Position numbers and translations under genes: made by a program. The notes beneath the pieces are model-generated. The model did not search any database. It was not told the DNA's origin and worked only from the letters and a program-made list of their open reading frames with translations. Positions 32,624 through 64,000 of a DNA stretch of 64,000 bases are shown here, in pieces. Source of the stretch: Promethearchaeota archaeon (lineage in GTDB: Archaea > Asgardarchaeota > Lokiarchaeia > Sigyniarchaeales > SOKP01); assembly GCA_016839585.1 (NCBI GenBank), contig JAEOTZ010000058.1, forward strand, positions 96,001 to 160,000. Direction: 5' to 3'. Positions within the stretch are counted from its first letter, which is position 1, and the number at the start of each line of letters is the position of its first letter.

Positions 32624-33973
32624 TTGAAGAACCTTGAACCTTTTTTTAACCCAAAAAGTATCTTAATTGTAGGCGTTTCAAGGAAAGCTTATACTTTTAG
32701 TTATACTGTCTTAAAAAACCTTTTAGAGATTTTTTATCAAGGCAAACTCTACATATTAAACCCTAATGCTAATGAGGTATTAGGTGTTAAATCCTATCAT
32801 TCTTTAGAAGAATTACCTGAAATTCCAGAACTAGCAGTAATAGTTTTAGGTACGAAAATATTAGACATTGTGGAAGAATTAGGGAAGTATGGTGTGAAAT
32901 ATGTAACAATTCAATCTGAATTAAAAACAGGAATTAATGATACTGATTTAACATTAAAATTGCATAAAGTCTGTGAAAAATATGGGATAACCTATTTAGG
33001 ACCTTCAATGATAGGAATTATTAACTTTATTGATAACTTTACGACATCAATTATTCCTGTTAGACAACATATAATGCGAGAAAATAAGAACATAACAGAG
33101 GGTATAGGTTTCATAGCACAATCTGGAGGGTTAGCAGGTGCTCTAGGGTGGTGGACCCCCTCACAAAAATTACCCATATCAAAAGTTATACACTTAGGAA
33201 AAGGCTTTCACGTTAATGAACAAGATATTATTGAATTCTTTCTTAATGATAAAACAGTTAAAGTTATTTCTTTGTTTTTAAGGGAAATTTCGGATGACCT
33301 AATTGACGCAGTAAAGAATATCTCTCAATATAAACCCGTTCTTTTCTTTTATGTAGGAAAAGATGAATTAAAAGAAAGAGAATTAGAAAAAGCAGGAGGA
33401 ATATCAGTATTAAATTACATTGAGCTTTTTGAGATAGCTAAGATATTCTTATGGTGTCCAGAGCCTAAGGGTCCCAATTTAGGGATTATTGGACCTAGTT
33501 CTGGTGCAATTCATCTAATTGTAAAAGAAATGAGAAAACAACATTTATCTTTGGCAAAACCAGATAAAGAATCTCAAGACATAATTATAAATAAAATAGG
33601 TGGCTCTACTTGCGCATATGGTAACCCTGTTGATTATTGGCCCCCAGAGAAATTTATAGGTATTAAAATTTGTGGTATCTATAATACATCTGCTTCTACT
33701 TTATTAAAGGACGAACATGTTGATGGATTAATCCTTGCCTTGGAATTTTTTATTGAAATTGAATTTGATTTTAATATATTTGATAGTATAAGAAGAACAA
33801 ATCCAGATAAACCAATTATCGTAATTCTTATACAAGCCGAACATGAAGGAGCCAAACGAGTATTCAAATCTGCTTCTGAGATAAAGATTCCCGTCTTTGA
33901 AAATGAAATAGAGCGCGCTGTACGAGGATATAGATTGTTATATGACTATTATTCAAAAATAAAAAAGAAATAA
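32624..33973 (+). CDS. ADP-forming acyl-CoA synthetase alpha-like CoA-binding protein, apparently lacking the phospho-His segment
   Basis: FFNPKSI.IVGVS, GPSMIG, AQSGG, NPVD; no SHTG motif. Confidence 0.75.
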   Translation: MKNLEPFFNPKSILIVGVSRKAYTFSYTVLKNLLEIFYQGKLYILNPNANEVLGVKSYHSLEELPEIPELAVIVLGTKILDIVEELGKYGVKYVTIQSELKTGINDTDLTLKLHKVCEKYGITYLGPSMIGIINFIDNFTTSIIPVRQHIMRENKNITEGIGFIAQSGGLAGALGWWTPSQKLPISKVIHLGKGFHVNEQDIIEFFLNDKTVKVISLFLREISDDLIDAVKNISQYKPVLFFYVGKDELKERELEKAGGISVLNYIELFEIAKIFLWCPEPKGPNLGIIGPSSGAIHLIVKEMRKQHLSLAKPDKESQDIIINKIGGSTCAYGNPVDYWPPEKFIGIKICGIYNTSASTLLKDEHVDGLILALEFFIEIEFDFNIFDSIRRTNPDKPIIVILIQAEHEGAKRVFKSASEIKIPVFENEIERAVRGYRLLYDYYSKIKKK

Positions 33974-42954: not shown

Positions 42955-43863
42955 TTATTCTGTATGAGCTGAAATAATTAAATCAGCAAAAAGCTTCATA
43001 TCGTTTAATAATGTATTCAATTTATCTTGTGAATCTCTATCAAGTTCCTTACTTTTCATAACAAGCACAGAAATTATATACTTGAAAATATGTAGTTCAA
43101 CTTCCTTTCCATCCTCATTTCTACCATTAAAATCTGCAGAATCTGACATAAAAATATTTTCTCGAACTGCATTACAAGCATTAATGAAATCTCTTAAATC
43201 ACCTCGTAATGTTAATCCACTACTCACTCCTTGAACATTATGAACTATAACATTTCCTGAAATATCTGCAATTATAACTTTAGCTTTAATTTCGTCAAGT
43301 TGGGTTTCTGCTTTTTCTACATGAGACTTCAAATCAGCATAAGATGAGAGTAAAATGTCCCTAAATACCTTCGCTAATTCATCTTGTAAATATATACTTG
43401 TTAATTTATAGTCAAACTCATAATCTTTGAAAAGATCTAAAAACATATCTTTCGCTTTTTTAACATTCGTGTCAAGGAGCTCCTTCTGAAAATCTTGTGT
43501 ATCATATTTGTGAAGAAAGAGAAAAATTGTTGGTTTTTCATTACTTTTTCGATAAATATCTAATAATCCTATGAAATATTCCTTTGCTTGCTCAAAACTA
43601 TTAGGATCATGTAAATCTACGATAGGAATAAGAATATCTGTGCCTCGAAAAATTTCAGGTTTTTCCATGTATTCTTTTCGATATTGTTCTTGACCTCCAA
43701 AATCAAAAATGCCAACTTGTAAACCTAAGAACGGATGGCGTCTTGTTTCATATAATATAGTCGGAGACAGACCTTTTGTTTCTTCTGCGCTCTTTTCTGC
43801 AAATGCCACAGAATATAGGCTCGTTTTCCCACTCCCAGATAAACCGACTAATGAAATTTTCAA
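42955..43863 (-). CDS. Rag/Gtr1-like GTPase with C-terminal roadblock-like domain
   Basis: GLSGSGKTS, LSPT, FDFGGQE, FLHKYD (HKxD G4 typical of Rag), TSI; C-terminal VIIADISGNVI. Confidence 0.82.
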   Translation of the reverse strand: MKISLVGLSGSGKTSLYSVAFAEKSAEETKGLSPTILYETRRHPFLGLQVGIFDFGGQEQYRKEYMEKPEIFRGTDILIPIVDLHDPNSFEQAKEYFIGLLDIYRKSNEKPTIFLFLHKYDTQDFQKELLDTNVKKAKDMFLDLFKDYEFDYKLTSIYLQDELAKVFRDILLSSYADLKSHVEKAETQLDEIKAKVIIADISGNVIVHNVQGVSSGLTLRGDLRDFINACNAVRENIFMSDSADFNGRNEDGKEVELHIFKYIISVLVMKSKELDRDSQDKLNTLLNDMKLFADLIISAHTE

Positions 43864-51244: not shown

Positions 51245-52357
51245 TTGAAAATTCTATTAACAGGTCCATTTGGAAATGTAGGGTTGAGCACTTTAGAAGA
51301 ATTAATTACTAAGAATTACAATATACGAGTATTTGAAATTAAAAACAAGAAAAATAGAAAAGTAGCTAAAAAATTTGAGAATCAAATTGAGATTATTTGG
51401 GGAGATCTACGTAATTATGAAGATGTTGAGAAAGCTGTAAAAAGTGTTGATGTTATTATTCATTTGGCAGCTATTATACCTCCACTTGCGGATAAACTCC
51501 CTGAATTATCAGAAGAAGTAAATGTAGAAGGGACAAAAAATATAATAAAAACTATAAAAAATCAAATTAATAAACCAAAATTAATTTTTACGTCATCAAT
51601 AGCTGTTTATGGTGACCGCAGGAAAAACCCCATGATCAATCTCACGGATCCTCTTAATCCAAGCAAGGGCGATTATTATTCACTTACTAAAATTAAAGCA
51701 GAAAAGATTATTCGAGAATCAGGTATTGATTTTTCAATTTTTAGGTTAACTTACATCACTTCTGTACATAAACTTGAAATGGATCCTTTGATGTTTCATA
51801 TGCCCTTGGATACTTGTATAGAAATCTGCGATACAAAGGATGTTGGATTAGCTCTAGTTAATGCGATCGAATGTAATGAAGTATGGGGTGGTACATTCCA
51901 TATAGCAGGAGGGGAACAGTGTAGAACTACATATCGAGAATATATTAATGATATGATGGAAATTTTTGGCTTAGGTAGGGATTTTTTACCTGAACAGGCA
52001 TATGAACAAAAAGACTTTCATTGTGGATTTATGGATACAGAAAAGTCTCAGAATCTTTTAAGATACCAAAAACACACCCTCAAAGATTATTATGATGAAG
52101 TAAGAAAGAAAGTTGGGCCAAAGAGAATTTTTATGCCAATGGTTAAATGGGCAATTCGTCTAAACCTTTTGAAACGTTCTGAAGCATATAAAAGAAATAA
52201 ATTCTTTAGAAAAAAGATTGGTGCTTTCACTGTGTCTGAGAATAAATTAATAAGAAAGATCCTTTACAATAATTTTAAAAAGATTGATATACTTGAACAA
52301 AAAGTTTATGAATTAGAAAAAGTTATACAATTTTTAACTGAAAAAGATGAATTTTAG
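51245..52357 (+). CDS. NAD-dependent epimerase/dehydratase (extended SDR)
   Basis: TGPFGNVG, HLAA, TSSIAVYG, YSLTK; start moved to TTG 51245 because GGAGG lies just upstream. Confidence 0.88.
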   Translation: MKILLTGPFGNVGLSTLEELITKNYNIRVFEIKNKKNRKVAKKFENQIEIIWGDLRNYEDVEKAVKSVDVIIHLAAIIPPLADKLPELSEEVNVEGTKNIIKTIKNQINKPKLIFTSSIAVYGDRRKNPMINLTDPLNPSKGDYYSLTKIKAEKIIRESGIDFSIFRLTYITSVHKLEMDPLMFHMPLDTCIEICDTKDVGLALVNAIECNEVWGGTFHIAGGEQCRTTYREYINDMMEIFGLGRDFLPEQAYEQKDFHCGFMDTEKSQNLLRYQKHTLKDYYDEVRKKVGPKRIFMPMVKWAIRLNLLKRSEAYKRNKFFRKKIGAFTVSENKLIRKILYNNFKKIDILEQKVYELEKVIQFLTEKDEF

Positions 52358-52643
52358 ACCTATTTGAACAAAAGGAGCAATATTAAAGGTTTTATTTAGA
52401 CAAATCTTTCAAATGAATCTGTAATTGATTATTTTTTAAAAAATTTTTTTTATTCCTTTTAATTTTCTAAATTAAAATTTTCTGTATGGTATATTTCAAT
52501 TAAAAATATTAAACTGGATAATGGATTTCCCTTATCTTGATAAATGAATAAATTTAAAAATTTAAATACCATAAAGATTGTAATAGTTAAAAATAGAAAT
52601 TATTGAGTTTGAAAGAGTAATTGAGGTGAAAGGGGAAAGGAGA

Positions 52644-54584
52644 ATGAAAGATGAGAATAATCATCGGATTGGATACTATGCTTGTCAGTGAGGTATAAAT
52701 ATTAAAGGTAAAGTGGATTGCGGTAAACTAGTAGAATTTGCTAAAGAGATGGACGATGTCGTCATTTCAAAGAGCCATGCCTTTTTGTGTACTGAAAGTG
52801 GCCAGAATGAAATTATAGAGGATATAAATGAAAAAAAATTAACCAGTATAGTTGCTTCTGCTTGAACACCTCGAACTCACGAACCTATTTATCGAGATTC
52901 AATTGCAAAAACAGATCTAAATCCATACTACTTTCAAATGGTTAATGTAAGAGAACATTGCTCATGGTGCACTGAAAGTAAGGAAGAGGCATTAGAAAAA
53001 GCAAAAATCTTAGTAAGGAGTGGAATCGAGAGAGCTAAAACTTTAGAAGTGGTACCTATTAAAACAGTTCCGGTAGAAAAAGCCACTTTGGTAGTTGGAG
53101 GAGGAATTGCAGGAATGAATGCAGCTTTAGATCTTGCAAATGCAGGAATAAAAGTCTATTTAGTTGAGAGTAAAACGACAATTGGCGGAAGAATGGCTCA
53201 ATTAGATAGAACATTCCCTACAGATGACTGTGCCATATGAATTTGCGGTCCAAAAATGCTAGAAGCCAATAGAAATGAAAATATTGAAATTCTCAGTTAT
53301 GCTGAAGTGAAAAATGTAGAAGGTTGCGTCGGAAACTATGAAATAGCTGTGGAAATGAAACCACACTTCGTAACAAATGACTGTAATGGCTGTGGAGCGT
53401 GTTCAGAAGTTTGTCCTGTTTACACTTCTAACTATTTTGATGAGAATCTTGGAGCTCGTAAAGCTATTGATATTGCTTTTGGTCAAGCTGTACCCTTCTT
53501 ATACGATATTCAAAGAGATTGTTGCGTGGAATGTTTTAGTTGTGTAGAAGCCTGTGAACTAGACGCTATAGATTTTAGTCAAATACCAGAAGAAGTGAAA
53601 TTTAAGGTAGGTACTATCATTATTGCCACGGGGTGGGATATCTATGAGCCTTATGGTGAATATGGCTATGGTGAATTCGATAACGTAATTACACAAGCCC
53701 AATTAGAACGAATGTTGGCACCTAACGGTCCATTAGAAGGCCATGTAAGGAGAATTTCAGATAATAAAAAACCAAAAGAAATTGTATTTATTCAATGTGT
53801 TGGAAGTAGAGATACGGAAAGAACTTATTGTAGTGGCGTATGCTGCATGTTAGCACTTAAGAATGGGAAACTGATAAAAGAAGAATTTCCCGACGCAAAT
53901 ATTACTATTTGTTATATAGATATGCGAACTAACGAAAAAGGTTTTGAAGAATATTATCAACGAGCGAAAAACTCCGATATTCGTATGATTCGAGGTAAAG
54001 TAGGTGAGATATCTGAAGATCTTGAAACTAAGGATGTCAAAATACGCGTATACTCCTCTTTAACGGATGAAATTATTAAAATTGATGCTGATTTAGTTGT
54101 ATTGTCTAGTGCAGCATTACCTTCAAAAGGGACAGAACAAATTGCTAAAGTACTGAATTTGGATGTAGATCGAAATGGATTTCTAACTGAGAGCCATTTT
54201 GGACTTATGCCACAAGAAACAAAGACAAAGGGTATTTTTATTGCCGGCTTTGCTCAAGGACCGAAAGATATTTCATATTCTGTCTCTCAAGCTAGAGCTG
54301 CAGCAAGTAAAGTCGCAGAATTAACAGCTCCAGGAAAAGTAGATATTGAATTAATAACTGCGGAAATAGATAAAGATTATTGTATCTCTTGTAGAAGATG
54401 TGAAAAAGAATGTCCTAAAGGTGCTATTAAAATTGTTGATATCGAAGGAGCTATTGTTGACGAAATAAATTGTGATGGATGTGGTATATGTGCTACTTGC
54501 TGTCCTACGCAGGCTATTGATATACGATATTATAGAGATTATCAATTATATGCTGAAATTGAGGGGATATTAGGAGGTGATTAA
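52644..54584 (+). CDS. hdrA: Selenocysteine-containing heterodisulfide reductase subunit A (646 aa, 3 Sec)
   Basis: One frame from ATG 52644 (RBS upstream) to TAA 54584 with in-frame TGA at 52689 (CQU-GINI), 52863 (SAU-TPRTHE) and 53238 (DCAIU-ICGPKM); the paralogue at 59057 has Cys at all three. Confidence 0.92.
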
Positions 54585-54588
54585 ACAG

Positions 54589-55032
54589 GTGGATAATAAT
54601 TTAAACATACTAATGTTTGCTTGTTTAAAATGAGGATATGGTGCTGCTGATCTAGCGGGTGTGTCACGTTTTAAATATACACCTTCGGTTAAAATAATAA
54701 AGGTACGATGCACTGGACGAGTTGATGTAAAACATATCTTATATGCGGTTAAATCTGGAGCTGATGGTGTTATGGTGGTTGGATGACGACCAGATGAATG
54801 TCAATTTAAGAGTGGAAATTTTAAAGCTCAGACTCATGTTGATTTAGCGAATAGGATCTTAGATCGAAGAGGTTTTGGAAATCAAAGAGTCAATCAATAT
54901 TGGCTGAGTAGTGCTGAATCTGAAAAATTGGTGAAGAGTGTGGAAGATACTCTTGAGAAAATTAGAAAGATTGGACCCAATCCATTAAACTTACAAGAAA
55001 TAAAAGGAGTAAAAAAAGGAAAAATCCATTAA
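54589..55032 (+). CDS. vhuD: Selenocysteine-containing MvhD/VhuD [2Fe-2S] subunit (147 aa, 2 Sec; absent from ORF track)
   Basis: GTG start 8 nt after GGAGGTGA; FACLKU-GYGAADLAG (TGA 54631), RCTGRVD, VVGU-RPDEC (TGA 54784); Cys paralogue at 62162. Confidence 0.92.
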
Positions 55033-55034
55033 CT

Positions 55035-55102
55035 ACTCCCATAGAATGATTCTTATAAAAAAATTATTGTTATAAGAGAACTATCCACGCGATGGAGGGA
55101 GT
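55035..55102 (+). promoter_or_regulatory. Candidate eukaryote-like SECIS element (3' UTR stem-loop)
   Basis: ACUCCC/GGGAGU outer helix, AUAG/CUAU helix, AUGA (55046-49)...GA (55078-79) core, UCUUAUAA/UUAUAAGA upper stem, A-rich apical loop; starts 2 nt after the vhuD stop. Confidence 0.75.
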
Positions 55103-55155
55103 TTTAAAAAATTTATAAAAAAGTTATAAAAAATTATTATAAAATTGAAGGAAAT

Positions 55156-56661
55156 ATGGTTCAAATAATAAATAGTAAATTGTTCGAAAAAATCTCTCCT
55201 AATGATTTGATCGAAGCTACATATAAAGCTTCAGGAAATTTCCAAGTAAGAGCATTTTTTGAAGCTAAAGATGAAATCTTAAAAACAGGCAAATATACAG
55301 AAGAAGAATTCTATGAAATCTTAGATGGAATGGTTGATGCAGAAACTGAACGATACTTAATTTTAAATAAAGTAAAGGGAAAGAAACCTCTTTTTTTAGA
55401 AGAAATTGCTGAAATAATCAAAGAATTTCCTCCTGAAAATGTAATAAGAGATATCATTTACTTAAAGGAACAAGGATATATTGAGGAACATATTGAGATT
55501 AAAACTAAAACTGTTATAAAAAAAATTAAGGGAGAAGAAAAGGAAGTTGAAGAAAAAGAATATTTTTATAGATATCAAGTAAAGGAGCTTCCAGATAATT
55601 TTATTGAACATTATTTTGAACCAATTTCTATTGTATATGATGCTGGTGTATGTTGTCAATGTGGATGGTGTGCTTCTATTTGTCCTGTCAATGCAATTGC
55701 AGTCACTGCAGACACTCTTGAGATAGATGATGAGGTTTGTATGAAGTGTGGATTATGTTATTCTGTTTGTCCTCGTTCCTTTTCAATTGAACAAGCTTTA
55801 TTGAGTATGAAAAAAATTGATAAATCTCTTCAATTTTCTGAAAAGATTAACGGATATCTTAATACATATTCAGCCACAACAACTAAAGATAAGATTAAAA
55901 AAGTACGCCAAGATGGAGGAATAGTAACCTCCTTACTTGAGTATTTATTAAAGAATAAATTAGTTGATGCTATTGTAGCAGTGCAACATTCAAAAGATTT
56001 CTGGAAACCAGAACCTGTTATTGTAGATAATTTAAACGATTTGTATAAAACGGGTGGAACTAAATATGCAAATGCATCGACTTTAGCTATTATAGGTCAA
56101 ACAAAAAATTATAAGAATATAGCTGTTGTTGGAACACCATGTATGATTAATGCAATTGAAAAAAGTAATTTATTTCCAACTAGAGTACCTTTTTTCAACA
56201 ACATTAAATATAAAATTGGGCTTTTTTGCATGGAATCTTTTCCTTATGAAGGTGTGCTTAAACTAATCAAAGAGCAATTTGATAAAGATTTTACGAAAGT
56301 AACAAAGATGGATATAAGCGGTGGAAAATTTATCATTTATTTGGATTCAGGGGAGGATTTAAGAGTCCCCCTTAATAATGTTAAATCCTATGCTCGAGCC
56401 AATTGTCATTATTGTGAAGATTTAACTTCTGATTATGCAGACATTTCTGTAGGCTCAATAGGCTCTCAAGCAGGTTGGTCTTCCGTTATCACTCGTTCAA
56501 AGAAAGGTGAAGAAATTTTCCAAGGAGCTGTTGAAGTAGGTTTAATTGAGTTTCAGAATCTAAAAGATGTTAAACCAGGACTAGGTCTTTTAGAAAGAAT
56601 TGCTGATACTAAAAGAAAAAATTGTAAACCAATTGAATTAATTAAAAATCAAAAAACTTAA
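55156..56661 (+). CDS. FrhB/FdhB-family F420-binding subunit with N-terminal helical/winged-helix extension and 2x[4Fe-4S] domain
   Basis: CCQCGWCASICP, CMKCGLCYSVCP, QDGGIVT, GGTKY, VGTPC, IGLFCM, CHYCED. Confidence 0.9.
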   Translation: MVQIINSKLFEKISPNDLIEATYKASGNFQVRAFFEAKDEILKTGKYTEEEFYEILDGMVDAETERYLILNKVKGKKPLFLEEIAEIIKEFPPENVIRDIIYLKEQGYIEEHIEIKTKTVIKKIKGEEKEVEEKEYFYRYQVKELPDNFIEHYFEPISIVYDAGVCCQCGWCASICPVNAIAVTADTLEIDDEVCMKCGLCYSVCPRSFSIEQALLSMKKIDKSLQFSEKINGYLNTYSATTTKDKIKKVRQDGGIVTSLLEYLLKNKLVDAIVAVQHSKDFWKPEPVIVDNLNDLYKTGGTKYANASTLAIIGQTKNYKNIAVVGTPCMINAIEKSNLFPTRVPFFNNIKYKIGLFCMESFPYEGVLKLIKEQFDKDFTKVTKMDISGGKFIIYLDSGEDLRVPLNNVKSYARANCHYCEDLTSDYADISVGSIGSQAGWSSVITRSKKGEEIFQGAVEVGLIEFQNLKDVKPGLGLLERIADTKRKNCKPIELIKNQKT

Positions 56662-56665
56662 TTGA

Positions 56666-57775
56666 ATGATTTTTATGAGTGTAAAAACATTTCAAGATTT
56701 AATAACAGAAGTTCATGAGAGAGGAATATGTCAAGAATGTGGAGGCTGCGTAAGTTTTTGTAGTTCAGCTGAGTATAATGTTATTGGTCTCAAAGATCCA
56801 TATAAACCTCCTGAATATATTAATAAGGAAAAATGTCTTGAATGTGGAATTTGCTATTATATATGTCCTCAGACTCATATTTTGGATAATGAGCTTAATA
56901 AAACGTATAAATTTACTGATTATTCTTCAATGCCAATAGGGTATTATGAAGATATTTACTCTTGTCAAGCTACTGACGCGGACTTTTTGAAATATGGAAC
57001 TGATGGTGGGGTTGTAAACTCTATTATAAATTTTCTAATAGAGAAGAAGTTAATTGATGGTTCTGTAGTTTCCAAAACAGAGGCTCCGTTTTCTAGAGAA
57101 GCTACATTTGCGAATAGTAAAACTGATTTATTAAAAGCTTCTGGAGCTAAATTAGATATTTCAGCTCAATTGGATGAGATCCAAAAGTTTTGCACATATA
57201 CTCATTCGATTCCTAAATTGAATCATTATAAATTCAAAAAATTAGCAGTCGTAGGTACACCTTGTCAGATTTATACAATGAGATGTATGCAAGATTTAGG
57301 GGTAACTCCTTCAGAAAATATTGAAATATGTCTTGGACTCTTCTGTTATGAGAATTTTTTATTTGATATCTCCAAAATTACTAAACTTGAGAAAGATTTC
57401 AATATAAAATTTACAGATATTGAAAAAATCAACATCAAGGAAGATTTAATTTTTAGATTAAAAGGTGATAAGGTAATTCATGTACCTTTTAACCGATTAA
57501 AATATTTTATGCGCCCTGCTTGTAATGCATGTGGTGATTTTACAAATATCTATGCAGATATTTCTTTTGGAGGTCTAGGTTCTCCTGATAAATATACTAC
57601 TGTTATAACTCGAACAAAAAAGGGAAAAAATATCTTTTCCAGAGCATTAGATGCGGGTGTAATTAAAAATTTAGATTTAAATCAGGCAAAAAAGAAAAAA
57701 ATGTTTGATTTAATTAGCCAATATTCTCAATCAAAATTAAAACGTCAAGAAAAATTTATGAATAACCTAAAATAG
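56666..57775 (+). CDS. FrhB/FdhB-family F420-binding subunit
   Basis: CQECGGCVSFC, CLECGICYYICP, TDGGVV, VGTPC, LGLFCY, CNACGD. Confidence 0.9.
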   Translation: MIFMSVKTFQDLITEVHERGICQECGGCVSFCSSAEYNVIGLKDPYKPPEYINKEKCLECGICYYICPQTHILDNELNKTYKFTDYSSMPIGYYEDIYSCQATDADFLKYGTDGGVVNSIINFLIEKKLIDGSVVSKTEAPFSREATFANSKTDLLKASGAKLDISAQLDEIQKFCTYTHSIPKLNHYKFKKLAVVGTPCQIYTMRCMQDLGVTPSENIEICLGLFCYENFLFDISKITKLEKDFNIKFTDIEKINIKEDLIFRLKGDKVIHVPFNRLKYFMRPACNACGDFTNIYADISFGGLGSPDKYTTVITRTKKGKNIFSRALDAGVIKNLDLNQAKKKKMFDLISQYSQSKLKRQEKFMNNLK

Positions 57776-57824
57776 AGATGAGCTCACAATAACAGAATCA
57801 AAAAGAGATATTGAACGGAAAAAA

Positions 57825-59060
57825 TTGTATAATGATACATTAGATTATTTAGAAAAGATATATGAACCAGATTTAAGAAATCTTCTAAAAAGATGCTATC
57901 AGTGTGGACGGTGTAGTGGAGTATGTCAATTAAGTAAAGTTCAAAAATATGCACCAAGTAAAATAATTGAACTAATATTAGAAGGTTTTGAAGATAGAGT
58001 ACTAGAAAGTGGCGAATTGTGGGATTGTTTAACTTGTAATCAATGTCTTAAGGATTGTCCCGAAGACATTAATTTCGCGGATATCGTAAGGATTGCAAGA
58101 TATAAAATGAGACATTTTGCTAATCAAAATCCTGACGAAATTGTTGCTCATAAAGGGATTTATACAACTATTTCTGAAATCATGAGTCGTCCCTATATAA
58201 CGCCAGAAAGATCACTTGACTGGGTTCCAAAAGGATGTAAAATATCAGATAAAGGCAATGTATTATATTATGTAGGGTGTTTACCTTTTTTTAATTATGA
58301 ATTTGAGAATTTAGATTCAATTGCGACAAGCACATTAAAAATATTATGTCAAATTGAAAAAGAACCTATTGTAGTATTTAAGGAAGAAAATTGCTGTGGT
58401 CATGATATTTATTGGGGTCAAGGTAAATTGAAAACCTTTATAAAGCTCGCTATGAAGAATATGGAGATGTTTGAAAAAGCAGGTATATCCAAAATTGTAA
58501 CCGCTTGTGCTGAATGCTATAGGACATTTAAAGTTGATTATCCTAATATATTTGAAGATTTTAATGATAAATTTGATGTGAAACACGTTATTGAATATAT
58601 TTATGAAAAATGGAAAGAAAATCTAATTCAATTTCATAATCCAAATAAAAAAAGTGAAAAAATACCTTTCACATATCATGATCCATGTAGGCTAAGTAGA
58701 TTTTTACCTAAAGATAATAATATTATGGAAAAAGTTCGAGAGATCTTTAAAGAATTCAAAGACTTAGGTTATGATTTTAATGAAATGGAACATAATCAGA
58801 AAAACGCTTTATGTTGTGGAGTAAGTTCTTGGATGAATTGTAATGAAAAATCTAAAGCACTAAGATATAAAAGAATGTTAGAAGCAAAATCAGCGGGAGA
58901 TATAATGGTTACTTCCTGTCCAAAATGTAGAATACATCTTAGCTGTCTTCAGGATGATTTTGAGGATATTGCTTCAATTGAAATTTTAGATTTTTCAGAA
59001 TTTCTAATTAACCATATAAAGTTAATAAAACCTGATATAAAAGGTGAGGAAAAGAAATGA
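57825..59060 (+). CDS. HdrD-like protein (HdrC-type ferredoxin fused to CCG domains)
   Basis: CYQCGRCSGVC, CLTCNQCLKDCP, CCGH, ACAEC, YHDPC, CCG, SCPKC. Confidence 0.88.
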   Translation: MYNDTLDYLEKIYEPDLRNLLKRCYQCGRCSGVCQLSKVQKYAPSKIIELILEGFEDRVLESGELWDCLTCNQCLKDCPEDINFADIVRIARYKMRHFANQNPDEIVAHKGIYTTISEIMSRPYITPERSLDWVPKGCKISDKGNVLYYVGCLPFFNYEFENLDSIATSTLKILCQIEKEPIVVFKEENCCGHDIYWGQGKLKTFIKLAMKNMEMFEKAGISKIVTACAECYRTFKVDYPNIFEDFNDKFDVKHVIEYIYEKWKENLIQFHNPNKKSEKIPFTYHDPCRLSRFLPKDNNIMEKVREIFKEFKDLGYDFNEMEHNQKNALCCGVSSWMNCNEKSKALRYKRMLEAKSAGDIMVTSCPKCRIHLSCLQDDFEDIASIEILDFSEFLINHIKLIKPDIKGEEKK

Positions 59061-62000
59061 TGGAAGGTTCTGTTTTAGTTATAGGTGCTGGAATTGGTGG
59101 AATCCAATCCGCTTTAGATTTAACTGAATTAGGCTTTAAAGTCTATTTAGTGGATAGAACTCCCTCAATTGGAGGTCGTATGGCTCAACTTGATAAAACA
59201 TTTCCTACAAATGATTGCAGCTTATGTATTCTTGCCCCTAAAATGGTAGAAGTATTTCGAAATCCAAATATAGAATTAATGACGTATCATGAAGTGCAAA
59301 AACTTGCTGGTAAACCAGGAGATTTTACTGTTACTGTTCTTAAAAAACCTCGTTATGTTGATGAAATAAAATGTAAAGGATGTGGAGATTGTGCCGCTAA
59401 ATGTCCAAAAATAGAGGTACCTAATCTCTTTGACATGAATTTAGGTAAGAGAAAATCAGTATATATTCCTTTTCCTCAAGCAGTTCCTCCAGTCTATCTA
59501 ATAGACCCTGAATTATGTTTGAAACTTACTAAGGGGGTATGTGGTGTATGTGCTAAAGTATGTCAAGCGGAGGCTATTGATTTTGATCAAAAACCTCAAG
59601 AAATAGAATTAAAAGTTGGAGCGATTGTAGTTGCTACTGGATTCGATATGCCTGCAAAAAATTTATCTTCACGGTGGGGTTATCATTATGAAAATGTAGT
59701 AAGCGCTCTTGAATACGAAAGGATTTTGTGTGCCTCTGGACCATTTGGTGGTCATGTTTTAAGACCAAGTGATCAGAAAGAACCTGAAAAAATAGCTTTT
59801 ATTCAATGCGCAGGCTCAAGAGATTTGCATGAGGGGGTGCCTTATTGTTCTAGTGTTTGTTGCATGTATACTGCTAAAGAAGCAATAATAACGAAAGAAC
59901 ATTCTGATAACTCACAATGTTTTGTATTTCGACATGATATCAGAGCATTTGGTAAAAATTTTTATGAATTTACGCAAAGAGCACAAAAAGAATATGGAGT
60001 AAAATATTTTCAAACTAAGATAAGTAAAATAGTAGAGGATCCGGAGACAAACGATTTAATTATTCATTATGAAGATTTAAAAACAGGTACATTTCATGAT
60101 TTTCAAGCTAATTTAGTTGTATTAGCGACTCCTTTAGTCCCCTCCACAGGATCTAAAGATTTAGCAAAGATTTTAGAAATAGAACTGGATGAATATCACT
60201 TTTTCAAAGAAAAAGATTATTTTAATAAATCTAAATCAACTAAAGATGGAATATATTTATGTGGATTCTGTCAAGGTCCGATGGATATACCAGAAACTGT
60301 TGCTGATGCAAGTGGAGTAGCAGGTCAAGTTGCAGCATTCTTGAATTCTGTTAAATTTGATCATATAAAAGAGAAGTTAGAAGTTCCCGAATTAGATATA
60401 AAAGCTACTGATGAACCAAGAATAGGGGTTCTAATCTGTCATTGTGGAATTAACATAGGTAAATATGTTCATGTACCTCTACTTGCTGAATATGTAAGAA
60501 CTTTGCCTAATGTAGTTCAATGTGAAGATAATTTATACTCATGTAGCTCTGACTCGCAGACACGAATTAAAGAATTAATTAAAGATCACAAATTAAACCG
60601 ATTTATTGTTGCTTCTTGCACACCAAGAACCCATGAAGCTTTATTTCAAGAAACCTGTCAAGAAGCAGGTTTAAATAAATATTTATTCGAAATGGTTAAT
60701 ATTAGAGATCAATGTTCTTGTGTTCATATGGACGATGCAGAAGCAGCAACCCAAAAAGCTAAAGATTTAATAAGAATGTCTGTTGCTAAATCAAGATTAT
60801 TAAAACCTCTGAAAGAAGAATTATTAAAGATTACTCCAACCTCATTAATTATCGGCGGTGGAATTGGTGGAATGAGTGCAGCCTTAAACATTGCTGAACA
60901 AGGTTTCAAAACATTTTTAGTAGAAAAAGAGAGCTTTTTAGGAGGAAATTTGAATTACCTAAATGTGTTATACCCCATTGAAGAAAATGCTTCAGACTTC
61001 TTAAATGAGACTATCGAAAAGGTTAATCATAATAAAAATATTCAAATCTTCCTAAATGCAAAAATTGGAGATATTAAAGGATATGTTGGTAATTACATCG
61101 TATCTATTGTTGATTCAAAAAATGAAACTCACGAATTAAGTATAGGAACTATAATTGTAGCTACTGGAGGTAAAGAATATAAACCTAAAGATATGTTTCA
61201 GTATAAAAAAGAGAATAAAAATGTCATAACCCAATTAGAACTAGAACAAAAACTAAAAGAAAAAGGGAAATCTTGGCTTGATGATATAAATAGAATAACA
61301 ACAATTCTGTGTGTAAATGCACGGCAAGTTGAAGGAATAACCTATTGTTCTAACATTTGCTGTGGGAATTCTATTAAAAACATTGGACTCTTAAAAAAGT
61401 TAAAGCCTGAACTTGAAATTGCGGTACTTTATAGAGATCTTCAAATGGCTAAGAAAAAGTATGAAGAGTATTATCGTGAACGTAGAAAAGATGCTATATT
61501 TTTAAGATATGACTTGGATAATATACCAATCATCAGTAAAGTAAACAAAGATCCAGAAAAATACAATATAAAATTTTACGATACTAATCTCCAAGATTTC
61601 ATAGAATTTAATACAGATTTAATTGTATTATCAACTCCTATGATTCCGGCGGATAATTTGGAAGAATTAGCAAAAATGCTTAAAGTTCCTTTAGATAGAA
61701 ATGGTTTTTTCCTAGAAGCCCACGTAAAATTAAGACCATTAGATTTTGCCACAGATGGAATTTTCTTATGTGGATGCGCACAATGGCCAAAAAATATACA
61801 AGATACTATTTCTCAAGCAAATGGAGCTGCGGGTAGAGCAAGTAGATTTTTAAGCGCCAAAGAAATTAAAACTTCGGGAATAGTTGCAGAAGTAGATCCA
61901 GTAAATTGCATTGGGTGTGGAAAATGTGAATCAGTATGTCCTTATAACGCTATTGATATTTTAGAATCTGCAAAAGATTATGAGGAAGTAAGCTTAATTG

Positions 62001-62143
62001 TAAGAAAATCATTTGTTAATTCAGCCTTATGTAAAGGGTGTGGTACATGCGCTGCAACTTGCCCAAATGGAGCTATATCTATAATGCAATACGATTTTGA
62101 TCAAATAACTGCTATGATAGAATCATATTTATTAGAATTATAA
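59057..62143 (+). CDS. hdrA: Large Cys-type HdrA-like flavoprotein with two FAD modules
   Basis: GAGIGG...GGRMAQLDKTFPTNDCSLC, internal RIGVLICHCGINI domain, second GGGIGG module, C-terminal ferredoxin. Confidence 0.92.
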   Translation: MMEGSVLVIGAGIGGIQSALDLTELGFKVYLVDRTPSIGGRMAQLDKTFPTNDCSLCILAPKMVEVFRNPNIELMTYHEVQKLAGKPGDFTVTVLKKPRYVDEIKCKGCGDCAAKCPKIEVPNLFDMNLGKRKSVYIPFPQAVPPVYLIDPELCLKLTKGVCGVCAKVCQAEAIDFDQKPQEIELKVGAIVVATGFDMPAKNLSSRWGYHYENVVSALEYERILCASGPFGGHVLRPSDQKEPEKIAFIQCAGSRDLHEGVPYCSSVCCMYTAKEAIITKEHSDNSQCFVFRHDIRAFGKNFYEFTQRAQKEYGVKYFQTKISKIVEDPETNDLIIHYEDLKTGTFHDFQANLVVLATPLVPSTGSKDLAKILEIELDEYHFFKEKDYFNKSKSTKDGIYLCGFCQGPMDIPETVADASGVAGQVAAFLNSVKFDHIKEKLEVPELDIKATDEPRIGVLICHCGINIGKYVHVPLLAEYVRTLPNVVQCEDNLYSCSSDSQTRIKELIKDHKLNRFIVASCTPRTHEALFQETCQEAGLNKYLFEMVNIRDQCSCVHMDDAEAATQKAKDLIRMSVAKSRLLKPLKEELLKITPTSLIIGGGIGGMSAALNIAEQGFKTFLVEKESFLGGNLNYLNVLYPIEENASDFLNETIEKVNHNKNIQIFLNAKIGDIKGYVGNYIVSIVDSKNETHELSIGTIIVATGGKEYKPKDMFQYKKENKNVITQLELEQKLKEKGKSWLDDINRITTILCVNARQVEGITYCSNICCGNSIKNIGLLKKLKPELEIAVLYRDLQMAKKKYEEYYRERRKDAIFLRYDLDNIPIISKVNKDPEKYNIKFYDTNLQDFIEFNTDLIVLSTPMIPADNLEELAKMLKVPLDRNGFFLEAHVKLRPLDFATDGIFLCGCAQWPKNIQDTISQANGAAGRASRFLSAKEIKTSGIVAEVDPVNCIGCGKCESVCPYNAIDILESAKDYEEVSLIVRKSFVNSALCKGCGTCAATCPNGAISIMQYDFDQITAMIESYLLEL

Positions 62144-62161
62144 AAAATGTTGTAATATATT

Positions 62162-62599
62162 ATGCCAAAAGCAAAAACAAAAGTAATAAGAAAAGACTTT
62201 ACTCCAGAAATACTAGTTTTTTGTTGTAATTGGTGTTCGTATGCAGGAGCAGATTTAGCAGGGGTTTCCAGATTTCAATATCCCCCTAACATGAGAATAA
62301 TACGAGTAATGTGTTCTGGAAGAGTTGATCCTGCATTTGTAATAAAAGCTTTAAAAGAGGGAGCTGATGGAATACTCATCACAGGATGCCATATTGGCGA
62401 TTGTCATTATATTTCTGGAAATGAGTATGCTCAAGAAAGATTTGGACGATTACATGAAATAATAATTAAACAATTAGGTATTAATGAAAAAAGAGTCAGG
62501 TTAGAATGGGTAAGTGCATCAGAAGGAAAGCGGTTTGCTGATTTGATCACAGAATTTACAAACCAAATAAAGGAATTAGGACCTTTGAAGGTACTTTAG
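62162..62599 (+). CDS. mvhD: Cys-type MvhD [2Fe-2S] subunit
   Basis: FCCNWCSYAGADLAG, CSGRVD, GCHIGDCHY, WVSASEG. Confidence 0.95.
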   Translation: MPKAKTKVIRKDFTPEILVFCCNWCSYAGADLAGVSRFQYPPNMRIIRVMCSGRVDPAFVIKALKEGADGILITGCHIGDCHYISGNEYAQERFGRLHEIIIKQLGINEKRVRLEWVSASEGKRFADLITEFTNQIKELGPLKVL

Positions 62600-62812
62600 T
62601 TAAAACCATTTAAAGATTAAAGAAGAATCCTGTTTTTCTTATAAATCTTAATTTTTTAATACCTATTTAAGAATAAATTTTTTTATATAAACCTCAAGTT
62701 CCATATTATCATAGCTGAATTCAATAAAAAATAGGAGTTAATATTATTAATAACGATAAATGATAAGGAAAAATTTATCGATATTGATCAAAGTTTACTA
62801 AAGTGATAGCCA

Positions 62813-62842
62813 TTTATTGAAAGAATTTTTGCTTTCAATAAA
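62813..62842. promoter_or_regulatory. 11-bp inverted repeat upstream of the third hdrA
   Basis: TTTATTGAAAG-aatttttg-CTTTCAATAAA. Confidence 0.4.
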
Positions 62843-63030
62843 ATATATATGAAAGATTTTCAGAAATTTACTTTATTATTAATGGAATTCGACATTTTTG
62901 AGCATAATACTTAAATAAATGCTTTTACTTATCTTATGATTAGCACATATTTTCTTGACCGAATTGTTAAGAAATTTTTCCAATAAAATTGAATAATTAA
63001 GTTATTACATTGTTCTATGAGGTAATTTCT

Positions 63031-64000
63031 TTGGAAGGTTCTGTGTTAGTAATTGGTGGAGGAATGGCTGGAATACAAACCTCTTTAGATTTAACTGAAT
63101 TAGGGTTTAAAGTTTATTTAATAGAAAAAGAAGCATCAATTGGCGGTCATATGGCTCAATTTGATAAACAATTCCCTGCAAACGACTGTAGTTTATGTAT
63201 GCTTGCTCCAAAAATGGTTGCAGTTTATAAGAATCCCAATATTGAATTATTTACTTTATCTGAGATTAAAAAAGTTAGTGGAAACCAGGGAAATTTTAAA
63301 GTTTCGATAGTTAAAAATCCTAGATATGTTGACGAAACCAAATGTAGGGGTTGTGGAGATTGTACTGCGAAGTGCCCAAAGATTGAAGCTCCGAATATTT
63401 TTGACATGAATTTAGGAAAAAGGAAATCAATTTATATCCCTTTCCCTCAAGCAACTCCTCCTGTATATTTAATAGACCCGGAATTATGTTTATTTTTAAA
63501 TAGAGATGTATGTGGGGTATGTAAAAAAGTTTGTAAGGGTGATGCAATTAATTTTTATCAAAAATCTCAAGAAATTGAATTGAATGTAGGTGCTATCGTC
63601 GTTGCTACAGGGTTTGATATGCTTGGAGAAGAATTATCTTCAAAATGGGGGTATCAATATAAAAATGTGGTAAATGGTTTAGAATATGAAAGAATATTAT
63701 GCCCAACAGGACCATTTGGTACACATATCTTAAGACCAAGCAATGAAGAAGAGCCTGAGAAAATAGCATTTATACAGTGTGCAGGATCTGGTTATCAAGA
63801 AAATCAGATTCCTTATTGTTCCCGTGTATGTTGTATGTATACAGCAAAAAATGCAATTTTAACAAAAATTTATGCCGAAACTCCTCAAATTACAGTTTTT
63901 AGACATAATATTCGGGTTTTTGGTCGAGATTTTTATGAGTATACTAAAAATGCTCAAGAAGAATATGGCATTAAATATATTAACAGTAAGATACAAATTA
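63031..64000 (+). CDS. hdrA: Third HdrA-like protein, N-terminal part (runs off window; absent from ORF track)
   Basis: TTG start after GAGGT; EGSVLVIGGGMAGIQTSLDL...FPANDCSLCMLAPKM...CRGCGDCTAKCP; close paralogue of 59057. Confidence 0.9.
   Translation, partial: MEGSVLVIGGGMAGIQTSLDLTELGFKVYLIEKEASIGGHMAQFDKQFPANDCSLCMLAPKMVAVYKNPNIELFTLSEIKKVSGNQGNFKVSIVKNPRYVDETKCRGCGDCTAKCPKIEAPNIFDMNLGKRKSIYIPFPQATPPVYLIDPELCLFLNRDVCGVCKKVCKGDAINFYQKSQEIELNVGAIVVATGFDMLGEELSSKWGYQYKNVVNGLEYERILCPTGPFGTHILRPSNEEEPEKIAFIQCAGSGYQENQIPYCSRVCCMYTAKNAILTKIYAETPQITVFRHNIRVFGRDFYEYTKNAQEEYGIKYINSKIQI

Follow-up and report, generated by a model that had tools for sequence, protein, structure and literature searches.

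A two-gene hdrA-vhuD unit of a Promethearchaeota archaeon with five in-frame UGA codons, very probably encoding selenocysteine, and a single lokiSECIS element

The window analysed here, a stretch of 64,000 nucleotides from the genome of a Promethearchaeota archaeon, carries on its forward strand two adjacent genes that contain in-frame TGA codons; the features described below for the two genes and for the region behind them, up to 62599, lie on this strand. Translation of positions 52644-54584 with TGA read as selenocysteine (Sec, U) gave a single frame of 646 residues with U16, U74 and U199, terminated by a TAA at 54582-54584, which we assign to hdrA, the gene for the heterodisulfide-reductase-type flavoprotein subunit A, on the basis of its full-length alignment to HdrA structures. 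Residues 7-644 aligned to 9sfi_A (E = 2e-194) and to 5odc_A (E = 3e-191), and full-length alignments were also obtained with 8rvu_a and 7bkb_A (E from 1e-161 to 2e-194 over the four structures). The five-part architecture of HdrA is present, with the N-terminal Cys domain, the FAD-binding thioredoxin-reductase-like domain with its CxxC/U motif, and the inserted and C-terminal 2x[4Fe-4S] ferredoxin domains; the Pfam Fer4 and Pyr_redox domains were found, and all cluster Cys are kept in a comparison of 64 orthologues. The model of the N-terminal domain (pLDDT 90) matched HdrA chains with Z = 21-23 in a structure search.

The second gene, vhuD (also mvhD, FlpD family; 54589-55032), lies directly behind hdrA on the same strand, its GTG start being separated by 4 nt from the hdrA stop, and codes for 147 residues with U15 and U66 before a TAA stop. 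A Shine-Dalgarno-like site (GGAGGTGA, 54573-54580) can be read within the 3' end of hdrA, 8 nt upstream of the GTG. The protein matched the whole Pfam FlpD model (PF02662; 1.6e-43, 148 bits, model positions 1-123 of 123), and its C12, U15, C41, U66 and C71 align to Cys13, 16, 42, 67 and 72 of Methanothermobacter marburgensis MvhD (9sw2_D, offset +1). A standard listing of open reading frames breaks hdrA into three pieces (52713-52865, 52938-53240 and 53256-54584) and retains only a 41-residue piece of vhuD, as the initial annotation had pointed out when it described the first gene as split and the second as missed.

To examine the conservation of the TGA codons we used 64 HdrA orthologues from Promethearchaeota (Lokiarchaeota) metagenome-assembled genomes (MAGs), with 78-96% protein identity, and 61 orthologues of VhuD, the counts given being of the sequences that cover each codon. 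The first TGA (52689-52691, codon 16) lies in a C-Q-U motif of the HdrA N-terminal domain, at a position that is Cys in all Cys-type paralogues, and is TGA in 63/63 orthologues; the second (52863-52865, codon 74) lies in the same domain in the motif A-S-A-U-T-P-R, on an invariant Cys column, and is TGA in 64/64. The third (53238-53240, codon 199; TGA in 63/63) belongs to the D-C-x-x-U motif and corresponds to the canonical Sec of HdrA, equivalent to Sec197 or Cys205 in the literature (PMC13518236, PMC13580544). In the structural alignments U199 falls on the Sec (X) of 9sfi_A, a Methanococcus chain, and U16 and U74 fall on Cys. In vhuD, codon 15 (54631-54633, motif C-L-K-U) and codon 66 (54784-54786, motif V-G-U-R-P-D-E-C) are TGA in 61/61 orthologues each, and both stand opposite the two X residues of 9sfi_K. 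All five TGAs thus fall on invariant Cys positions, in frames that are otherwise open and end in TAA, so that this claim of the initial annotation was confirmed. We roughly estimate the chance that five random codons would all fall on Cys columns at about 2e-7, with Cys making up some 5% of the columns in HdrA and 3% in VhuD, and a run of about 790 codons free of TAA and TAG at 29% GC would be vanishingly unlikely in non-coding DNA.

The number of TGA codons in HdrA varies around this fixed set. Codon 49 alternates between TGA (37 of the 64 orthologues) and Cys (27); four Sec are found in 35 of the 64 and five in 4, which places the present copy, with three, at the low end. Between two and five TGAs occur in HdrA of all 61 genomes of the family, three to five being the norm for the orthologue group, and none of the 64 has a TGA at the C-terminal end of HdrA. 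Five Sec-type HdrA paralogues of the same genome have TGA at codon 16 (5/5) and in part at codon 74 (2/5). The Cys-type paralogues that had been indicated in the same window are indeed there, namely a 1028-residue HdrA-like fusion (59057-62143) and a Cys-type mvhD (62162-62599); by Pfam the region outside the Sec unit (55156-62599) also holds two frhB/fdhB-like genes and, 2.8 kb downstream, an hdrC/B-like CCG-domain gene. At the end of the window, a third HdrA-like gene (contig positions 159001-161820) shows an apparent stop, which is its own TGA terminator and not a Sec codon. Scattered pieces of both hdrA and vhuD are covered by two metatranscriptome runs, in short Logan contigs of 90-99% identity whose libraries may include DNA.

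Behind vhuD, single-sequence folding, a genome pattern scan and covariation point to a eukaryote-like type I SECIS element, or lokiSECIS (55035-55102, 14 nt past the vhuD stop). It comprises a lower stem (ACUCCC/GGGAGU), an AUGA core (55046-55049), an upper stem of 9 bp (55050-55058 with 55070-55078), an 11-nt loop (AAAAAUUAUUG, 55059-55069) and a small side hairpin (55081-55095). The minimum free energy fold places a stem of 8-9 bp and the 11-nt A-rich loop after the AUGA; the base of the upper stem is irregular in this copy and can be drawn either as a U-G pair followed by AA or as an 8-bp stem followed by GA. The pattern scan of the 3.45-Mb genome returned five strong elements with the 9-bp stem and 11-nt loop, three of which, including the present one, follow hdrA or hdrA-vhuD (contigs C45, C47 and C59, the present one being that on C47), one lies in a [NiFe]-hydrogenase (vhuG/vhuU-like) cluster (C49) and one stands behind a short UGA-containing frame (C60); the same scan gave no second element inside hdrA-vhuD. 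The five UGAs are spread over 2.1 kb, and the element lies 262 nt from the last of them and 2357 nt from the first.

Comparison of 12 orthologous loci supports the predicted fold. Five of the 15 consensus pairs show compensatory changes, 97.2% of the cells are paired against 89.0% in shuffles, and the covariation score is 0.315 against 0.154 after shuffling, none of 500 shuffles reaching the observed value in either measure; slid controls gave 40-63%. The start of the frhB-like gene is kept after the element in orthologous loci. An Rfam scan of positions 52000-56000 with E up to 10 gave no match to a SECIS family, and we do not take this as evidence against the lokiSECIS because the library seems to have no model that recognises it.

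The genome also encodes the components of a Sec pathway of the archaeal/eukaryotic kind. The Rfam tRNA-Sec model found a candidate (C86:59756-59872; 34.6 bits) whose anticodon is UCA and whose T loop contains an intron of 31 nt; a SepSecS gene adjoins it (388 bits) and SelB/EFSec lies 3 kb away (242 bits). A PSTK candidate (146 bits) and two SelD genes with one TGA (Sec) each complete the set. The tRNA-Sec and PSTK candidates score below their curated cut-offs, plausibly owing to the intron and to the divergence of the lineage. ARAGORN reported 18 tRNAs over the whole genome and no tRNA-Sec, presumably because of introns; the Rfam model did find the intron-containing gene. The search for this machinery, proposed in the initial annotation as a check on its selenoprotein pair of a three-Sec HdrA and a two-Sec VhuD, has hence come out positive, and the SECIS element, absent from that annotation, adds to it.

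Taking the conservation, the element and the machinery together, the five UGAs in hdrA and vhuD are very probably selenocysteine codons. We further consider, with high confidence on these genomic grounds, that the two genes form one selenoprotein unit in which all five UGAs would be decoded as Sec under one lokiSECIS. A single bicistronic mRNA would carry both genes, Sec-tRNA(Sec) and EFSec would decode the five codons, and the single kink-turn-type lokiSECIS would direct the insertion of Sec at every UGA in both cistrons. The predicted products would be HdrA, the flavin-based electron-bifurcating subunit, and VhuD, its small iron-sulfur partner. To our knowledge, a SECIS-binding protein has yet to be described from Asgard archaea; according to PMC4989117, this group has no known homologue of SBP2.

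The alternative that fares best accepts the Sec system and supposes partial decoding, so that the distant codon 16, at 2.36 kb from the SECIS, would mostly terminate translation or take Cys, and the product would be largely truncated, Cys-substituted or started downstream. Misinsertion of Cys at UGA does occur in other Sec systems, which counts for this alternative. Five UGAs in two cistrons under one SECIS are also without experimental precedent, an arrangement called "unparalleled" by Mariotti et al. (PMC4989117). Against it, the TGA at codon 16 is kept in every covering orthologue and in every Sec-type paralogue of the genome, and the 15 residues preceding it, among them H-R-I-G-Y-Y-A-C, are conserved as protein, which would be surprising if translation mostly stopped or restarted at this codon; we therefore regard partial decoding as improbable. 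A genome-wide reassignment of TGA to one of the standard amino acids (code 4 or code 25, for example) would fit the GC content of 29%, as stop reassignments occur in some AT-rich bacteria, but TGA is an ordinary stop here, terminating 168 among 1359 long frames, after which the next stop follows at a median distance of 6 codons, and seemingly serving as VhuD's own stop, beside the SECIS, in 31 of the 61 orthologues. This, together with the restriction of the in-frame TGAs of hdrA-vhuD to Cys columns and the dedicated Sec pathway, makes reassignment extremely unlikely. That hdrA and vhuD are pseudogenes, or that their TGAs are Cys codons (TGT/TGC) misread in sequencing or assembly, might be suggested by each TGA being one base away from a Cys codon and by the broken appearance of the genes to standard ORF callers, but the idea hardly deserves credence and is effectively refuted by conservation, given that TGA stands at these codons in 61-64 orthologues from independent MAGs as well as in sediment metagenome contigs of independent origin, that other stops and frameshifts are absent, that protein-level conservation spans the TGAs, and that a conserved SECIS follows the pair.

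The selenoprotein unit so understood is not new in kind. Mariotti et al. (2016, Mol Biol Evol; PMC4989117) described Lokiarchaeota HdrA proteins in which five positions can hold Sec, up to four of them in one protein; the gene always stands in tandem with that of a two-Sec VhuD, and the two share one SECIS. Huang et al. (2024, ISME J; PMC11227280) catalogued hdrA-frhD pairs with eSECIS-like type I elements across Asgard archaea. The two-Sec VhuD itself has been known since Wilting et al. (1997), as cited in PMC4989117. The hdrA-vhuD arrangement of the window, including the multi-Sec HdrA, is consequently one already known for Lokiarchaeota since 2016, and it carries little weight as a discovery, being the textbook example of a multi-Sec HdrA and a two-Sec VhuD with a shared SECIS. 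The pairs of these two papers have the gene order, shared strand and minimal gap of the present one, hdrA standing immediately before vhuD. They also agree with it in several HdrA Sec at conserved Cys positions, among them the canonical site close to residue 200, in two VhuD Sec some 50 codons apart, in an hdrA stop other than UGA, and in one SECIS past vhuD, built of an AUGA core, a stem of 9 bp and a loop of 11 nt that starts with AAAAA. The AUGA_AA core variant is reported there for Lokiarchaeia hdrA/frhD, and the published Loki tRNA-Sec resembles our candidate in its T-loop intron of 31 nt and in sharing a contig with EFSec. We found no essential difference; the consulted passages of PMC4989117 and PMC11227280 make no mention of the conserved small hairpin at the 3' side of the SECIS. 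The view of the initial annotation that three Sec in HdrA are notable thus stands in comparison with methanogens, whose HdrA has one, but not within the Loki group, where three to five TGAs are usual.

The selenoproteins of Methanococcales and Methanopyrus, such as the Hdr-Vhu-Fwd complex of M. maripaludis (9sfi; PMC13518236), share with the present pair the canonical HdrA Sec, both VhuD Sec positions, an HdrA N-terminal domain with 42-45% identity and the hdrA-vhuD neighbourhood. They have, in contrast, Cys at the positions of Sec16 and Sec74 and a different SECIS of archaeal type, and their genes stand beside vhuAGU, whereas the present host is not a methanogen and the neighbours here are frhB-like genes and HdrA-like paralogues. 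Eukaryotic SECIS elements (kink-turn, AUGA...GA, A-rich apical loop) resemble the lokiSECIS in the AUGA before a stem of about 9 bp, in the unpaired adenines that open the apical loop, in the 3'-UTR position and in acting at a distance on several UGAs, although the lokiSECIS is much shorter and serves two cistrons. The hdrA-vhuD system would be the most extreme known case of one SECIS for many UGAs in two cistrons. Because gene callers break hdrA in three and lose vhuD, Hdr complexes are under-counted in MAG annotations and in metabolic reconstructions.

We finally consider where the selenium would lie in the protein complex. In our reading all five Sec map to the mobile arm, formed by VhuD and the HdrA N-terminal domain, and to the CxxU motif beside the bifurcating FAD, where the arm docks. 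Recent (2026) cryo-EM work does not treat the canonical Cys/Sec pair as a plain cluster ligand and sees in it either a redox-active relay or a pair that binds a ligand (PMC13518236, PMC13580544); the N-terminal "shuttle" [4Fe-4S] cluster is bound by Cys of its domain and by Cys197 of the partner subunit (PMC9012536). Some of the Sec may bind the [2Fe-2S] cluster and the shuttle [4Fe-4S] cluster and others may belong to a redox-active Cys/Sec relay, the selenols perhaps tuning electron hand-over at the flavin gate; the Se-ligated Fe-S clusters along the electron path that the initial annotation envisaged are in this sense plausible for some sites. We found no list of the N-terminal cluster ligands in PMC12054007 or in bioRxiv 10.1101/2024.09.26.615249.

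A relationship between the HdrA N-terminal domain and VhuD is proposed from one profile-profile alignment (hhalign, P = 6e-4), which paired C14/C12, U16/U15, C49/C41 and U74/U66. Such a relationship was reportedly also drawn in a crystal-structure paper of 2017. BLASTP of the domain against VhuD aligned the first Cys motif alone (E = 0.2), the Pfam FlpD model matched none of 20 HdrA N-terminal domains with E up to 10, and the structure search with the domain model, which displays one chain per entry and so could not show the MvhD chains of entries listed by their HdrA chain, returned generic flavodoxin-like folds after the HdrA chains. We offer tentatively, as somewhat short of an even chance, the proposal that Sec16 and Sec74 of HdrA occupy positions equivalent to Sec15 and Sec66 of VhuD in a distantly related fold, that all the selenium lies in the mobile arm and the flavin gate and none in the static ferredoxin clusters, and that the shuttle cluster is heavily Se-ligated. 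Since no more than four Cys are invariant in the N-terminal domain, selenolates would, if the proposal is true, supply at least two of this cluster's four ligands, and three in the 37 orthologues with Sec49, making it a natural, heavily Se-ligated [4Fe-4S] cluster. Placed on the 2026 Hdr structures, the Sec sites give the testable idea that selenium is concentrated at the mobile arm and the flavin gate.

Translation of positions 52644-55032 with TGA taken as selenocysteine (Sec, U) yielded two reading frames that are open apart from TGA. The first, hdrA (52644-54584, + strand), encodes 646 residues with U16 (TGA at 52689), U74 (52863) and U199 (53238), and the second, vhuD (54589-55032, +), encodes 147 residues with U15 (54631) and U66 (54784) and starts at a GTG with a GGAGGTGA motif 8 nt and the hdrA stop 4 nt upstream. 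Both genes end in TAA, which bears out the proposal of the initial annotation that five TGA codons lie in otherwise intact frames. Its remark on the failure of the gene caller was also correct, the mechanical list of open reading frames giving hdrA in three pieces and vhuD reduced to 41 residues. Residues 7-644 of the hdrA product align to solved HdrA subunits (9sfi_A, from the Methanococcus maripaludis Hdr-Vhu-Fwd structure, E = 2e-194; 5odc_A; 8rvu_a; 7bkb_A), and Pfam searches identified the expected Fer4 and FAD-binding domains in this protein and a full-length FlpD/MvhD protein (148 bits) in the vhuD product. In the alignments to 9sfi, whose deposited sequence marks the Methanococcus selenocysteine as X, HdrA U199 and both VhuD U residues are placed directly opposite X, and HdrA U16 and U74 are placed opposite Cys.

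Folding of the RNA 3' of vhuD revealed a SECIS-type structure 14 bases from the stop codon (+ strand), comprising an AUGA core (55046-55049), a 9-bp stem (55050-55058 with 55070-55078; 8 bp without the closing U-G pair) followed by AA, an apical loop of 11 nt (AAAAAUUAUUG), a small side hairpin (55081-55095) and a lower stem ACUCCC/GGGAGU. The element matches the lokiSECIS as described in excerpts of Mariotti et al. (2016; PMC4989117), and its core is the AUGA_AA variant that the excerpted text of Huang et al. (2024; PMC11227280) reports for Lokiarchaeia hdrA/frhD. When the entire 3.45-Mb genome was scanned for this pattern, five strong 9-bp/11-nt elements emerged, located behind hdrA or hdrA-vhuD (contigs C45, C47, which carries the present pair, and C59), in a [NiFe]-hydrogenase (vhuG/vhuU-like) cluster (C49) and behind a short UGA-containing frame of no assigned identity (C60). 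The structure is kept in 12 orthologous loci of other genomes, 5 of its 15 pairs showing compensatory changes; both the proportion of paired cells (97.2% vs 89.0% in shuffles) and the covariation score (0.315 vs 0.154) were reached by none of 500 shuffles, and sliding the pairing partners left 40-63% paired.

The side hairpin (alignment columns 68-78), which follows the upper stem and precedes the lower stem's 3' strand, is conserved as three base pairs (CC-N/N-GG), the third being changed on both sides in 6 of the 12 orthologues (UA, AU, GU, UG); the excerpted published accounts of the 9-bp/11-nt lokiSECIS make no mention of it. Apparently 31 of 61 VhuD orthologues have a TGA stop a few bases ahead of the SECIS core (the copy studied here ends in TAA), in keeping with the published proposal that recoding requires some minimal distance between UGA and SECIS.

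The Sec machinery, proposed by the initial annotation as a check, was found in the genome. A tRNA-Sec candidate with a UCA anticodon and a 31-nt T-loop insertion, the same unusual intron as published for Loki tRNA-Sec, adjoins a SepSecS gene, with a SelB/EFSec gene 3 kb away on the opposite strand; a PSTK candidate is present, as are two tandem selD (selenophosphate synthetase) genes with one in-frame TGA each (contig C5, 26616-28714), several selD copies having been noted in Loki/Thor genomes in excerpts of Huang et al. (PMC11227280). Elsewhere in the genome TGA is an ordinary stop: 168 of 1359 long frames terminate at it, the next stop following after a median of six codons. ARAGORN found only 18 tRNA genes in this genome (29% GC, ~99% complete), which suggests that most tRNA genes, like that of tRNA-Sec, carry introns where the program cannot handle them.

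HdrA genes with two to five in-frame TGA codons occurred in all 61 genomes sampled from the family. Among 64 orthologues (78-96% identity), all from marine-sediment Promethearchaeota (Lokiarchaeota) MAGs, TGA is conserved at HdrA codons 16 (63/63), 74 (64/64) and 199 (63/63) and at VhuD codons 15 and 66 (61/61). At HdrA codon 49, 37 orthologues have TGA and 27 encode Cys, such Sec/Cys exchange at a single site being the usual mark of genuine Sec positions. The residues ahead of the first HdrA UGA are conserved at the protein level, so translation does not just start after it. These five independent lines (SECIS, machinery, TGA as normal stop, TGA conservation and protein conservation before the first UGA) make us highly confident that the hdrA-vhuD UGA codons are read as selenocysteine. 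For practical purposes, the same lines rule out that the genetic code has been reassigned, that the TGA codons are sequencing errors or that the genes are pseudogenes. Short metatranscriptome contigs, from libraries possibly containing DNA, cover parts of hdrA/vhuD, and two of them span UGAs (52689 and 53238).

A fifth HdrA TGA is present in three orthologues from different MAGs with 75-79% mutual identity, at codon 300 (L062 and L070) or 297 (L091). The codon falls within the CxxCxxCxxxC motif of the inserted ferredoxin domain, where it takes the place of the second or the third Cys, a residue that canonically ligates a [4Fe-4S] cluster; an error is unlikely because codon 300 is common to two orthologues. 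Judged from sequence, these sites may add to the five Sec positions described in 2016.

According to excerpts of Mariotti et al. (PMC4989117), Loki HdrA genes always have a two-Sec VhuD downstream of them at minimal distance, their stop is always UAA or UAG, and up to six UGAs, spread over ~2 kb, were proposed to depend on one lokiSECIS after vhuD; Huang et al. (PMC11227280, in the excerpted text) extended this to 227 Sec-utilising Asgard genomes and 1439 selenoprotein sequences. The pair analyzed here shows each defining feature of this arrangement and is therefore a correct rediscovery. The three-Sec HdrA, considered notable in the initial annotation, is not supported as new, Loki HdrA with up to four Sec at five positions having been described by Mariotti et al., and the accompanying statement on a single HdrA Sec is true of methanogens only.

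That the selenols ligate Fe-S clusters, as first suggested, is plausible in part. The 2016 view (excerpts of PMC4989117), which predates any structure, was that the N-terminal HdrA sites are not cluster ligands, and the crystal structure, as summarised in the excerpted PMC9012536, assigns the N-terminal [4Fe-4S] cluster to the domain's own Cys plus Cys197 of the partner HdrA. Cys197 is the canonical HdrA Sec site. Because the domain has exactly four invariant Cys positions (14, 16, 49, 74), this ligand account would make at least two ligands of the N-terminal cluster Sec in the present protein. Two cryo-EM papers of 2026 complicate this picture. The density shared by Sec197 and a Cys is continuous in M. 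maripaludis and was interpreted as a possible selenylsulfide relay between the N-terminal cluster and FAD (PMC13518236). The authors of the second paper (PMC13580544) highlighted the His68/Asp71 pair of MvhD, whose VhuD counterparts, Arg67/Glu70, adjoin U66; in the alignment VhuD U15 and U66 correspond to MvhD Cys16 and Cys67.

In a profile-profile comparison, the HdrA N-terminal domain and VhuD could be aligned across 118 columns (P = 6e-4), with C14/C12, U16/U15, C49/C41 and U74/U66 (HdrA/VhuD) as pairs; HMM-to-sequence and BLAST searches did not confirm this relationship. A position-wise relationship between the two is modestly supported. If true, the extra HdrA Sec would occupy positions equivalent to the two classic VhuD Sec, and all the selenium of the pair would be confined to the mobile arm and to the motif on which this arm docks at the bifurcating flavin; the static ferredoxin clusters are all-Cys in 61 of 64 orthologues. 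This reading is the only part of our results that may go beyond published work.

A second electron-bifurcation cluster, all-Cys, lies 3' of the SECIS (55156-64000, continuing to position 161820 of contig C47), with two frhB/fdhB-like genes, an HdrC/B-like CCG-domain gene, a 1028-aa double-HdrA fusion, a Cys-type mvhD and a 939-aa HdrA-like fusion. Genes for a [NiFe] hydrogenase do not adjoin hdrA-vhuD, so Vhu hydrogenase probably does not serve as electron donor of this complex; since orthologous loci also have the start of the frhB-like gene beside the SECIS, the partner of the Sec pair may be an input module of FrhB type and not a hydrogenase. Also encoded in the window is a small GTPase of the Gtr1/RagA family (42955-43863, - strand; Pfam, 3.6e-23), one of the eukaryote-signature proteins that typify Asgard genomes.

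The genome holds five Sec-type HdrA and four Sec-type VhuD paralogues, plus many Cys-type ones. One Sec-type hdrA (contig C59, 34021-35943, - strand; SECIS at 33919) has no vhuD behind it, its frame extending into a short stretch similar to the VhuD C-terminus (…ILPEIE) and terminating at the UGA of the AUGA core of the SECIS. The sequence suggests that the body of vhuD has been lost in frame, and the gene is an exception to the rule that hdrA never ends in UGA.
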